Positions 1 to 9,728 of a stretch of 11,233 bases of DNA are shown piece by piece; position 1 is the first letter of the stretch, and each line of letters begins with the position of its first letter. The notes under the pieces were generated by a model that had not been told where the DNA came from, did not search any database, and saw nothing but the letters and a program-made list of their open reading frames with translations. The translations under genes and the position numbers were made by a program. The DNA comes from a virus. The stretch lies in the UHGV virus genome UHGV-0151101; one strand, 5' to 3'.

Positions 1-616
1 CAGGAGAAGGCTGGCAACAGATGCAACGCATCTGCGCCCGGCCAGCATGAAAAATAACGAGAAATGAACGTTCGGTTTCTTCCACCATCGCACCGGACAG
101 GCGACTATGAGGGGACAACGCCGCGCTCCGTTAACGCGGTAAACCCCGGTGTGTATCGTTTTTGATTATTTCCGCACACTCGCGCAGAGGAGTTCCCCGT
201 CGGGCTGCGGTCTCTGTTAATGCAGGAATACGGCGACGATACAGCGCATGATGTGTCAGGCTTGAATACCTTTATCCTTTAAAAGGGATATCAGTTAAGT
301 TATCCCGTGTAGGGTATAAGCCATTGTCGAGACCACTCATTGAATGGCCTCTGCAATAACCGATGTCTTTCCATCAGTCCGCCACCACAAAGAATCTTTT
401 TTGCCTTAAGGCAGGAGCTTCATCTTTCAGTGGCTGCCAGTGTTATTTCCCCACTTACTGGCTTGGGTTGTTTCGTGGTACTGCCGTAACTGGTTGCCAA
501 GAATAAATTCCGGTTTCATTATCAAGCCCACCCGTAGATGGGCTTTGTAATGGATAGCCGTTGCTCAGTTCTCGTAATGCTTTGATTTTTCAGATAACGC
601 AGTTTTGCGTTTGCCA

Positions 617-1138
617 TCAGCACGCGATATCGAGAGTCAACTGCAGTTGCTCGCGCCAGTACTCAACATTTGCTTCAATAACCGGCTTATCCCATCGCCA
701 GCGAGCCATCTCTCTTGCCCCATTGCTGGCTTTTGATTTCCGGTCATCGCGAATGCGACATGCTTGCTCATATTTCTGCTGCTCAGTCAGTTCACCGCGA
801 AGCAGACTATCAATGTGCAGGTCGCACCACACAGCAAAACGAGCATCACACCAACGGGCAAATGCAACTGAAAGTTTTGGATGTAGCCACGTACCACCAC
901 CCCTGTCCTTTCGTGCCTTGCTGGTTTTTACATACCTCGATTGTGAGGGATGTAAAATTTGAGATTCTTTCCCGGTCAACGCTTCGTCTAAAGCACGAAC
1001 GTATTCAAGCGTTTCTGCCAAACGCATCCAGTTATCAATGCGTTTTCCAAATCTCTCAGCAACACCTGTGACGTTGATCCAACCATCAGTGTTGAAACTG
1101 ACAATTTCACCTTTGTAATTAAGTGGCACGATATTCAT
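617..1138 (-). CDS. KilA-N domain protein (173 aa), accessory gene downstream of the lysis cassette
   Basis: Complete ORF. N-terminal motifs DGWINVTGVAERFGKRIDNWMRL and GGGTWLHPKLSVAFARWCDARFAVWC fit the KilA-N DNA-binding domain pattern as I recall it. Lies after an intrinsic terminator that follows Rz. Upstream ribosome-binding site is weak. Confidence 0.65.
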   Translation of the reverse strand: MNIVPLNYKGEIVSFNTDGWINVTGVAERFGKRIDNWMRLAETLEYVRALDEALTGKESQILHPSQSRYVKTSKARKDRGGGTWLHPKLSVAFARWCDARFAVWCDLHIDSLLRGELTEQQKYEQACRIRDDRKSKASNGAREMARWRWDKPVIEANVEYWREQLQLTLDIAC

Positions 1139-1254
1139 AACGTTTACCTACCATTTGAAATGAACCTTTGCCGCATAGGAAACCAGCCCACCGAGGCTCG
1201 CCAGCACTAACTGGTATCCTCAAAGGCCCATTCCAAAGGGGCAGGTTCGGTGTA

Positions 1255-1285
1255 AAAAACATGCGTTGCGGTACGCATTTATTGC
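1255..1285 (-). terminator. Rho-independent terminator after Rz
   Basis: On the - strand: ATGCGT accgca ACGCAT (6-bp perfect stem, 6-nt loop) followed by GTTTTTT. About 55 nt downstream of the Rz stop. Confidence 0.5.
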
Positions 1286-1339
1286 AAAAAGCCCCGCATC
1301 GCGAGGCTCATTAAATTGACTTTGTGATTTGCAAAAAAA

Positions 1340-1777
1340 TTATTTCAGGCATTGCGTCCTGATGTACTCCTGCAGGTAGTTAACCTGCGCGGTTATCTTG
1401 TCGATTCCACTTCGGAGACGGTAATAATTGAGTTCAGCATCTGCTGTAAGTCTTGGGCTTTCTCCATCGCCCATGCTGCTGGCTCCGGTCGTTGACTTTG
1501 CACAGGTGGCGGCGACTTGCAGGCGCTTACGACCAGCAGAAACATCAGCACGGAGACTTTCGATAGTCGCGTTTGCATCAGCAAGCTCCTTTGTATATCT
1601 GGCGTCGAGTTCTGCTACATCACGTTGACGCTTCTGCATGTCAGCGATGATGTACGTGGCTTTATCGCGCTGCTCTTTGTAGGCGATGGCGTTATCACGG
1701 TAATGATTAACAGCCCATGACAGACAGACGATGATGCAGATAACCAGAGCAGAGATAATCGCGGTTAATCTGCTCAT
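1340..1777 (-). CDS. Rz: Rz i-spanin (inner-membrane spanin subunit), 145 aa
   Basis: N-terminal half [31 protein letters not shown] is near-identical to lambda Rz as recalled; C-terminal half diverged. Start overlaps the R stop (ATGA). Confidence 0.9.
1393..1584 (-). CDS. Rz1: Rz1 o-spanin lipoprotein, embedded in the +1 frame of Rz
   Basis: ORF lies wholly inside Rz in another frame. Signal peptide with lipobox LLVVSAC, then a Pro-rich segment [17 protein letters not shown], parallel to lambda Rz1. Confidence 0.8.
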
Positions 1778-2557: not shown

Positions 2558-2994
2558 GTCTTACCCCCAATAAGGGGATTTGCTCTATTTAATTAGGAAT
2601 AAGGTCGATTACTGATAGAACAAATCCAGGCTACTGTGTTTAGTAATCAGATTTGTTCGTGACCGATATGCACGGGCAAAACGGCATGAGGTTGTTAGCG
2701 CAACCTCCTGCCACCGCTTTCACGAAGGTCATATGTAGAAGGCCGCAGCATAACTATCACTGATGAGTTCAGGATAGCCAGTGGCTACGGCTCAGTTTGG
2801 ATTGTGGCGACCGGTGCTGATCTCCGGTTTGCTGCAACTGCCTACAGCGGGCTACGTGGCCACACCGAATCCAGCGAAAGATTCTTGCCCTTACACATCA
2901 GCCTGTGCATTCACCACAACGGAAAGAGCACTGGCTAACCAGGCTCGCCGACTCTTCACGATTATCGACTCAATGCTCTTACCTGTTGTGCAAA

Positions 2995-3082
2995 CAAAAA
3001 AAGCCACCGTTGCAACTTAAGAGTCACTAACGGCAGCTTATGCGAATAGTGTTGCTCATTTGCTCAATGATGTCAACACGTT
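2995..3082 (-). promoter_or_regulatory. Late promoter and terminated leader (pR'/qut/tR'-like) immediately downstream of Q
   Basis: On the - strand a TTGACA -35 hexamer (+ coordinates 3071-3076) sits just after the Q stop, with no clean -10. An imperfect hairpin spans 3002-3038 and is followed by a T7 run (+ strand A-run 2996-3002). Sequence from about 2560 to 2990 resembles the lambda region between tR' and S as I recall it. Confidence 0.4.
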
Positions 3083-8811: not shown

Positions 8812-8997
8812 TTATGCCGCTTGGCGGTAAGCACTTTCTTGATACTTCAGGGCGCCAGCTGTAACGATTTCCAATCGATAGGCGTCTTTCTCTGGGATAA
8901 CTTCTTTCCACTGAGAGACTGCTGCATCGCTAATGCCTAGTGCTTTAGCAACAGCACGCTGGGTTCCGAAGTGGTCAATAACATCTTTTTTGTACAT
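8812..8997 (-). CDS. cro: Cro repressor, 61 aa, P22 Cro type
   Basis: MYKKDVIDHFGTQRAVAKALGISDAAVSQWKEVIPEKDAYRLEIVTAGALKYQ... matches P22 Cro as recalled. GGAG 7 nt upstream of the start. Confidence 0.9.
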   Translation of the reverse strand: MYKKDVIDHFGTQRAVAKALGISDAAVSQWKEVIPEKDAYRLEIVTAGALKYQESAYRQAA

Positions 8998-9077: not shown

Positions 9078-9728
9078 ATGAATACACAACTGATGGGTGA
9101 GCGTATTCGCGCTCGCAGAAAAGAACTCAAGATTAGGCAGGCTGCCCTTGGCAAGATGGTTGGCGTGTCTAATGTTGCTATTTCCCAATGGGAGCGATCT
9201 GAAACTGAGCCCAATGGCGAAAACCTATTGGCCTTAGCCAAGGCTTTGCAGTGCTCCCCTGATTACCTGTTGAAAGGAGAGGATAGTCTTTCAAACATTG
9301 CCTATCACAGCAGGCATGATCCAAGAGGTTCGTATCCTCTAATTAGTTGGGTAAGCGCAGGATGTTGGATGGAAGCTGTAGAGCCATATCATAGGCGTGC
9401 AATAGATAACTGGTACGACACAACGGTAGATTGTTCTGAAGACTCTTTTTGGCTCGACGTTAAAGGCGATTCAATGACTGCCCCGGCAGGACTGAGTATT
9501 CCTGAGGGGATGATTATTCTCGTCGACCCAGAAGTCGAACCACGTAATGGAAAGCTGGTAGTCGCCAAACTTGAAGGAGAAAACGAGGCGACATTCAAAA
9601 AGTTAGTTATTGATGCCGGTAGAAAATTCCTGAAACCACTCAATCCACAATACCCAATGATTGAAATCAATGGGAACTGTAAAATCATTGGCGTTGTCGT
9701 TGATGCCAAGCTAGCAAACCTTCCTTAA
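9078..9728 (+). CDS. c2: Prophage repressor, 216 aa, P22 c2 type (cI family, LexA-like autocleavage domain)
   Basis: MNTQLMGERIRARRKELKIRQAALGKMVGVSNVAISQWERSETEPNGENLLALAKALQCSPDYLLKG... and the C-terminal peptidase-like domain (GDSM...K) match P22 c2 as recalled. Confidence 0.95.
   Translation: MNTQLMGERIRARRKELKIRQAALGKMVGVSNVAISQWERSETEPNGENLLALAKALQCSPDYLLKGEDSLSNIAYHSRHDPRGSYPLISWVSAGCWMEAVEPYHRRAIDNWYDTTVDCSEDSFWLDVKGDSMTAPAGLSIPEGMIILVDPEVEPRNGKLVVAKLEGENEATFKKLVIDAGRKFLKPLNPQYPMIEINGNCKIIGVVVDAKLANLP

Follow-up and report, generated by a model that had tools for sequence, protein, structure and literature searches.

The closest described relative of the element examined here is P22F, an 89-nt small noncoding RNA of Salmonella phage P22 whose 3′ end lies 6 nt before the start of rha. 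P22F was detected only in infected cells, where it was validated by reverse transcription PCR, it also occurs as a discrete 89-nt species in vesicles, and an IsrK-like role was proposed by its authors (Naaz et al. 2026, Noncoding RNA 12:21, PMC13397905). That paper gives only identical copies of P22F, in P22-like phages, and in the literature we found no leader of a Rha or KilA-N gene described before it. Here we analyze an 11,233-nt stretch of the UHGV virus genome UHGV-0151101 (the window), a segment of a lambdoid prophage or phage in which positions 1232-1154 match P22F nt 1-79 at 78 of 79 positions. The matching sequence is part of a leader of about 150 nt (1285-1136) in front of a gene for a KilA-N domain protein, and this leader is a discrete conserved island that reassorts with unrelated downstream genes exactly at the start codon and is widespread in prophages of the Enterobacterales. 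An earlier model-generated reading of the same letters (the original prediction) had instead proposed that the KilA-N gene and a coupled small open reading frame (ORF) might form an independently expressed module. What is new beyond the P22F report is an additional stem (P1), a covarying fold, the swapping of downstream genes, and the breadth of distribution across the Enterobacterales.

As in P22, the conserved RNA of the window stops immediately ahead of the start codon of the gene next in line after Rz. That gene is rha in P22, whereas it is the KilA-N gene in the window, where a small RNA is predicted from sequence homology. The rha genes of P22 (ORF201) and phi80 occupy the same slot after Rz and carry the same leader, and the C-terminus of the window's KilA-N protein matches the Rha-type ORF11CD3/phrog_518 region, although below the cutoff for ORF11CD3; the N-terminal domain, however, is Phage_pRha in Rha and KilA-N in the window protein. 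The rha gene blocks phage growth in IHF-deficient hosts, according to Henthorn & Friedman (1995) as that work is cited in PMC4936722. IsrK, from the isrK-orf45-anrP region of Gifsy-1, is a small RNA with its own promoter and a trans-activating mechanism (PMC13397905). The resemblance is that of a small RNA with its 3′ end some tens of nt ahead of the next ORF, within a prophage operon for an anti-repressor-type protein, but the leader has no sequence or structure match to the Rfam model of IsrK.

The leader comprises two stems, P1 and P2, then the ribosome-binding site and the ATG of the KilA-N gene. In the order of transcription, the terminator that precedes it, its parts and its gene are as follows:

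1286..1309, minus strand: intrinsic terminator t1, GAGCCUCGC-GAU-GCGGGGCUU followed by U5, a 9-bp stem (-14.1 kcal/mol, z=-3.0)
1254..1278, minus strand: leader stem P1, AUGCGU-ACCGCA-ACGCAU followed by U6, the U-run being lineage-specific; called a terminator in the original prediction
1146..1246, minus strand: leader stem P2, an imperfect hairpin of about 100 nt (-48.2 kcal/mol, z=-4.75)
1146..1149, minus strand: Shine-Dalgarno (SD) sequence AGGU, read directly from the sequence 7 nt upstream of the KilA-N ATG
617..1138, minus strand: gene for the KilA-N domain protein, the cargo of the cassette (Pfam and PHROG matches, existing annotations)

In a sensitive DNA search, positions 1154-1252 shared 98% identity with the stretch ahead of P22 rha, and identities of 75-92% were found upstream of the Rha-like gene 79 of ES18, an HNH gene of RothC (Klebsiella), a Rha gene of Meifeng (Hafnia) and an anti-repressor gene of IdasGreatGrand (E. 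coli). When these regions are aligned, the similarity reaches the common ATG and is gone beyond it. A scan of IMG/VR for the exact core of the element returned 128 copies representing 74 distinct leaders. Mean pairwise identity is 0.82-0.93 within the element, the middle value being inflated by the central 22 nt that served as the search key, as against 0.30-0.42 in the 120 nt on each side. At least seven different cargo genes follow the leader:

Rha with ORF11CD3, 51 loci
a second type of KilA-N with ORF11CD3, 41 loci
the window's type of KilA-N, 12 loci
HNH_3, 7 loci
long Rha proteins, 3 + 2 loci
P22_AR_N with ORF11CD3, 1 locus
T5orf172/MUG113, 1 locus

This set is that of the domain-swapping 'Bro network' together with homing-endonuclease-like genes. 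Leaders and cargos reassort: of 39 identical P2 sequences, ten stand ahead of at least two classes of cargo, every cargo class follows several leader variants, and the window's own KilA-N allele also stands behind a diverged leader subtype in the SE1/ABTNLsp11242 phages. The nearest ORF upstream of the leader is Rz in 82 of 123 loci, and otherwise another spanin gene, Q or a preceding cassette.

A covariance model built for the leader (R1) detects the element at full length in 21 representative genomes, which belong to ten genera of the Enterobacterales (Enterobacter, Citrobacter, Kluyvera, Pseudocitrobacter, Trabulsiella, Kosakonia, Cedecea, Silvania, Brenneria and Symbiopectobacterium). It also recovers diverged copies ahead of gp73 in HK97, of rha in phi80 (64 bits) and of a second phi80 gene (ORF x171.28). 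The HK97 copy (L129:2059-2205) scores a weak 19 bits, and it is correctly placed and has the layout of P1, long hairpin and AAAGGU-ATG. This match suggests, from sequence comparison, a family much broader than the exact-core copies. Within complete E. coli genomes the element is present in 954 of 5426 (about 18%), at up to five places per genome, and these copies are either unannotated or covered by an over-extended coding sequence of the 'Rha family'. Annotated Rha starts fall inside P2 in P22 (the GTG of ORF201, L004:1185-1254), in phi80 (L159:940-978) and in E. coli annotations from the Prokaryotic Genome Annotation Pipeline (PGAP; H207-H216), 12-23 codons upstream of the ATG that is common to all cargo; these starts are probably annotated too far upstream. 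Outside the Enterobacterales, hits of 18-mers in metagenome-assembled genomes (MAGs) were rejected as chance matches, as none was a model hit and about 17 would be expected by our estimate. A 4-kb contig labelled as part of a Candidatus Nanosynbacter MAG (JARKOR010000234.1, L142) carries a full-length leader scoring 163 bits, for which mis-binning or contamination is the probable explanation.

Two or three leader-cargo units lie in tandem on one strand in several of the collected loci (L030, L043, L044, L073, L025, L036, L065, L032, L089, L158 and L159, the last being phi80). In the diverged tandem copies that we read, a hairpin with a U-run precedes each leader, such that the repeated terminator-leader-cargo units resemble a cassette array in late operons.

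The fold of the leader is unusually stable and is conserved. The spacer between Rz and the KilA-N gene has a folding z-score of -3.95, and RNAalifold predicts a consensus of 35 pairs in which P1 is a 4-bp GC stem with a conserved ACCGCA loop and P2 is an imperfect hairpin of 86-100 nt. The P1 loop is conserved across the 74 distinct leaders and its closing pair covaries, being C-G in 60 and U-A in 13, whereas the U-run after P1 is found only in leaders of the window's type and is absent in most relatives. Across the same 74 leaders, pairing holds in 99% of the alignment cells, a figure that falls to 33-50% if the partners are slid, and compensatory changes occur in four pairs (50 cells), a level reached by none of 500 shuffles. 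With eight diverged copies added, in an alignment that was fitted to the covariance model, compensatory changes are seen in 18 of the 35 pairs, and pairing is 96% compared with 29-47% for slid partners. The covariance model scores the sense strand at 150-177 bits and the antisense strand at about 20 bits, and this difference fits the presence of G-U pairs; it thus argues for an RNA element rather than a DNA element. Judged from these sequence comparisons, the leader is a structured RNA in which compensatory changes, on the sense strand, have preserved the pairing.

These results bear on the possibility that the conserved island acts as DNA, either as a patch of boundary homology or as a homing or recombination site for cassette exchange, with an RNA fold that is incidental. 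Such a role would suit the reassortment of leader and cargo, the HNH and T5orf172 (homing-endonuclease-like) cargos and the existence of tandem cassettes. However, a DNA site would not account for compensatory changes that preserve pairing, for G-U pairs on the sense strand only with model scores of about 160 versus about 20 bits, or for the retention of the fold in diverged leaders despite sequence change, and we consider this explanation improbable. A second alternative is that the long stem is a reading frame, namely an upstream ORF that begins at a GTG at the tip of P2, whose translation would open the stem and be coupled to the cargo start. The GTG is invariant and has GAGG about 10 nt upstream, in some leaders the TGA of the frame overlaps the ATG or the frame continues in register into the cargo, and the frame is annotated as the N-terminus of Rha (ORF201) in P22. 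Nevertheless, the end of the frame has no fixed register relative to the ATG, all three occurring among the 74 leaders; the window's copy reaches a TAG stop 9 nt before the ATG; and the variable codons of the frame mostly encode radical replacements (G/D, Y/C/I, K/T/R) that track base pairing. On the strength of the three registers and the radical replacements we rejected this candidate, to which we assign almost no probability.

The placement of the SD sequence suggests what the structured RNA might do. In the lineage of the window the base of P2 is formed by ACCUGCC and the SD region GGUAGGU, whereas diverged leaders have CCUUU paired with AAAGG; such pairing would limit translation or make it depend on an opening event. 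The predicted pairing of the SD sequence averages 0.88 across leaders and is 0.99 in the window. The overall layout recalls the leader of lambda N, which carries the boxB hairpin of nutL, a long RNase III hairpin and the N ribosome-binding site; RNase III sites also lie between genes in T7. In both leaders a small GC hairpin is followed by a long, imperfectly paired one that contains an asymmetric internal loop, and an SD sequence and AUG come directly after it on a polycistronic phage transcript, but the two are unrelated in sequence, and the lambda N leader is early whereas that of the window stands in the late operon. The geometry of the P2 helix fits what is expected of an RNase III site (about 20 bp or more with an internal loop), and by this analogy P2 resembles a candidate RNase III processing site. 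Inspection of the P1-P2 linker by eye for an IHF site gave only partial ATCAA-like matches.

It might also be supposed that the leader is mainly the gene of a trans-acting small RNA of the P22F family, which would pair with phage or host RNAs or with its own long untranslated mRNA, as IsrK does. P22F accumulates as a discrete species in both infected cells and vesicles, the IsrK-like proposal (PMC13397905) points the same way, and unpaired loop and bulge residues of the leader are conserved as well as its stems. Against this, the leader keeps a fixed spacing to the SD sequence and the ATG, and the edge of its conservation falls exactly at the ATG. Furthermore, there is no complement of 10 nt or more elsewhere in the transcripts of the window, and the 3′ end of P22F has no terminator of its own. 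A scan of the whole window against Rfam 15 (E<=1) returned only an unrelated snoRNA model at 8819-8883 and no match to IsrK or any other small RNA. We therefore regard a mainly trans-acting role as a live but less likely rival, and favor a cis-acting one: the leader is likely, by the predicted structure, a translation-control or processing element on the late transcript.

The KilA-N gene itself is an ordinary, known accessory gene with nothing new about it. Its product of 173 amino acids (stop codon TGA at 619-617) matches Pfam KilA-N (PF04383) over residues 7-114 with 77.5 bits (cutoff 23.8; E=8.2e-22), the profile search thereby bearing out the domain assignment of the original prediction. 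The C-terminal residues 122-169 match ORF11CD3 (PF10549) at 16.2 bits, below the cutoff of 25 (E=0.013), and phrog_518, 'Rha-like transcriptional regulator', with E=4e-9; the protein also matches phrog_129, 'transcriptional regulator' (E=3e-57). A DNA-binding or regulatory role is thus supported at the level of annotation. Hundreds of records of phages and E. coli already carry an annotation of the gene, for example as 'KilA-N domain-containing protein' (WP_001028465.1) in E. coli, HK544, Emek and ev099, and a sequence search of the PDB with the protein found no relatives.

Between Rz and the KilA-N gene, one clean terminator had been predicted at 1255-1285. Terminator structures in this interval are indeed supported, and a pattern scan finds the hairpin in question (1278-1261) with its U6 run (1260-1254). 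This hairpin is weak, however, with 6 bp and -6.9 kcal/mol (18 of 200 shuffles fold as well), and is leader stem P1, and the stronger terminator t1 at 1309-1286 had been missed. The records of HK544, Emek, ES18 and phi80 have a rho-independent terminator annotated at the position of t1, and a terminator adjoins P1 in most diverged cassettes. Both t1 (U5) and the structure at 1278-1254 (U6) have the stem-loop and U-run form of terminators, and termination activity is predicted for them. A simple pattern scan of the minus strand reported no promoter-like site here, but the scan is insensitive. The idea that the gene has regulation of its own appears to hold, in the form of what looks like post-transcriptional control by the structured leader rather than of a separate promoter.

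Downstream of the KilA-N stop codon the window contains the following features:

596..611, minus strand: small hairpin AACGCA-AAAC-UGCGUU just past the KilA-N stop (-6.4 kcal/mol, equaled by 9 of 200 shuffles), with no U-run
522..617, minus strand: ORF of 31 codons, MANAKLRYLKNQSITRTEQRLSITKPIYGWA, whose start overlaps the stop of KilA-N (TGATG); in our judgement not a gene
524..545, minus strand: hairpin AAGCCCAUC-UACG-GGUGGGCUU with a UNCG-type loop (-16.0 kcal/mol, z=-5.2)
344..487, minus strand: homologue of P22G (nt 59-204), 137 of 144 positions identical to P22G (sequence from PMC13397905)

The small ORF had been described as encoding 32 amino acids at 617-519. It is present but has 31 codons, with its TGA at 524-522, and the peptide given with that description also has 31 residues. 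The overlap of stop and start (TGA at 619-617, ATG at 617-615) is real, and a check for the ORF in close relatives found it intact in all nine variants collected. By our estimate, however, a TGA+TG overlap followed by 31 open codons arises by chance at a rate of roughly 1% per gene, and is unremarkable by itself. No purine-rich SD sequence is present upstream of the ORF, no family match was found in Pfam, PHROGs or NCBIfam, and in the listed E. coli genomes with the junction the KilA-N gene is the sole PGAP annotation under the match, with no small ORF called. The nine variants differ by 3 nonsynonymous and 3-4 synonymous substitutions, and these 6-7 sites are too few for the ratio of nonsynonymous to synonymous rates (dN/dS) to decide.

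The ORF spans a mosaic joint near 556, its last 11 or so codons lying inside a conserved 3′ flank (300-556) that is kept in phages with a different gene or no gene at this site, namely phage L, HK97, HK022 and P22. Window positions 500-556 of this flank match more than 1000 E. coli genomes, and the junction with KilA-N occurs in only 148 genomes. When phage L is read directly, the corresponding frame has no start codon. The flank opens with the hairpin at 524-545, which encodes the last seven residues of the ORF (KPIYGWA), and a C-to-U variant in its stem retains pairing as G-U; matches to the flank with this hairpin are found in more than 1000 E. coli genomes regardless of the preceding gene, and the hairpin may be a processing or stability element. 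Given the missing SD sequence and family match, the mosaic joint, the phage L frame and the stable hairpin in the final codons, we judge the small ORF a junction artefact: as far as the sequences tell, it is probably a by-product formed where the tail of the cassette meets the conserved element that follows, and not a coupled gene. The chance that it is translated is small.

The proposal of an independently transcribed two-gene module can be weighed against this evidence. It would let the terminator insulate the module from the lysis genes, place a promoter within 1138-1260 and couple a 31-residue peptide, for example a modulator or an antitoxin, to the KilA-N protein, and it draws on the real TGATG overlap, the intact ORF in nine sequence variants and the two terminator-like hairpins upstream. 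Against it, the scan reported no promoter-like site, conserved hairpins fill all of 1139-1285, and the peptide lacks an SD sequence, a family match and an annotation by PGAP. Its last 11 or so codons lie in a flank that is also found without KilA-N, where the phage L frame has no start, and they form a hairpin of -16 kcal/mol. Substitutions over the ORF are 3 nonsynonymous to 3-4 synonymous. A coupled module of this kind is in our view very unlikely. Nor does the locus conform to the morons of HK97 and HK022, in which a gene with its own promoter and terminator is inserted among the late genes. The likeness lies in an extra gene between the lysis and packaging genes and in a site that is empty in phage L. 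In the window, by contrast, neither an upstream promoter (in a scan of low sensitivity) nor a downstream terminator was found, there being no hairpin with a U-run beyond the KilA-N stop; the terminator lies upstream, and the unit is defined by a common RNA leader.

We hold, with moderate confidence, that the locus is an accessory cassette of the lambdoid late operon, made up of t1, the structured P1-P2 leader, the SD sequence, the ATG and the KilA-N gene, with the small ORF as a by-product. The KilA-N gene would then have no promoter of its own and would be expressed from the Q-antiterminated late transcript, which starts at pR′ and would read through t1 and P1; we infer this Q-dependent readthrough from the absence of a detected promoter, which is a weak test, from the two upstream terminators and from standard lambdoid biology. 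With the SD sequence in or beside the base of P2, translation would be limited, or made conditional on an opening event, and a potentially harmful DNA-binding protein would thereby be held in check. P2 might in addition be cut out or persist as a stable RNA of about 90 nt, as P22F does in P22 infection.

Several observations weigh against parts of this account. Leaders of the main type are about 80% identical and covariation among them is confined to four pairs, and the larger count of 18 pairs comes from the fitted alignment. Across the 74 leaders, the pairs between SD and anti-SD sequences show no covariation, and the mean SD pairing of 0.88 does not clearly exceed the values for other window genes (0.31-0.99); with occlusion that is not distinctive, the predicted masking of the SD sequence is a weak step. 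The promoter scan was crude enough to miss pR′ upstream of S, and a weak promoter is possible. The small ORF is intact in nine of nine variants, all of which differ little from the window (7 variable sites in 93 nt). The boundaries of P22F come from read coverage and might delimit a degradation-resistant fragment, and for this phage the expression part of the account is drawn from sequence.

The surroundings are those of a typical lambdoid genome, with the minus-strand order cII, O, DnaB-type helicase, NinB, NinX, YbcO, RusA, Q, S, endolysin (R), Rz/Rz1 and the KilA-N gene. Genes placed in the window include:

9078-9728, plus strand: cI
3571-3083, minus strand: Q
2557-2234, minus strand: holin S
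2250-1774, minus strand: endolysin (R)
1340..1777, minus strand: Rz i-spanin gene (Pfam Phage_lysis, E=1.9e-36), the last gene of the lysis cassette and upstream neighbor of the KilA-N cassette
1584-1393, minus strand: Rz1, embedded in Rz

The nearest records are phages HK544 (97.6%), ev099 and Emek, several Shiga toxin (Stx)-converting phages and many E. coli prophages. In UPEC-245U the same KilA-N gene is followed by about 800 unannotated nt and then the small subunit of terminase, an order consistent with the predicted position of the gene ahead of the packaging genes. Phage L represents the empty site, with the conserved 3′ flank almost directly after Rz. The spacer between Q and S (2558-3082, 525 nt) is the expected home of pR′, qut and tR′, as annotated in HK544, and contains no homologue of P22E; the P22 small RNAs P22B, P22E, oop and 23as have no meaningful homologues in the window, and a scan of the window for tRNA and tmRNA genes gave no match.

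The region at 344-487 corresponds to the 3′ two-thirds of the P22 small RNA P22G. The same stretch covers what precedes a DUF2560-family gene and what is left of the 5′ end of that gene, with AAG in place of its ATG (407-405); in phage L and ABTNLsp11242 a DUF2560/orf118 gene is annotated from the equivalent ATG. From its sequence, the gene looks dead in this prophage, with the RNA-like region kept. Between this remnant and the terminase/cos region beyond the window edge, positions 1-300 hold no notable ORFs and are without annotation in relatives.

The leader is a strongly conserved, structured and unannotated RNA element. About 18% of complete E. coli genomes carry it, those of O157:H7 and Stx-phage lineages among them, and it is found also in P22, phi80, ES18 and HK97, with the small RNA P22F as its one experimental sighting so far. 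Unrelated regulator genes are exchanged at the point that it marks, and gene calls appear to overrun it repeatedly. Prophage annotation would gain from a defined RNA family with its model. More tentatively, it is possible that P1-P2 is a portable riboregulator that defines exchangeable terminator-leader-cargo cassettes, gates translation of the cargo through a common factor and releases a functional small RNA of the P22F type. If so, the common factor could be RNase III, IHF-dependent control or a protein that binds P1, and the gated cargo would be DNA-binding proteins of the Bro network (Rha, KilA-N and Ant-like proteins) together with homing endonucleases. This would constitute a new and widespread family of phage RNAs with one control logic, and could explain the IHF phenotype of phi80 and P22 rha. 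A defined family would also offer a handle on how phages restrain potentially toxic DNA-binding proteins, and would make the 40-year-old observation on rha and IHF testable at a specific sequence.

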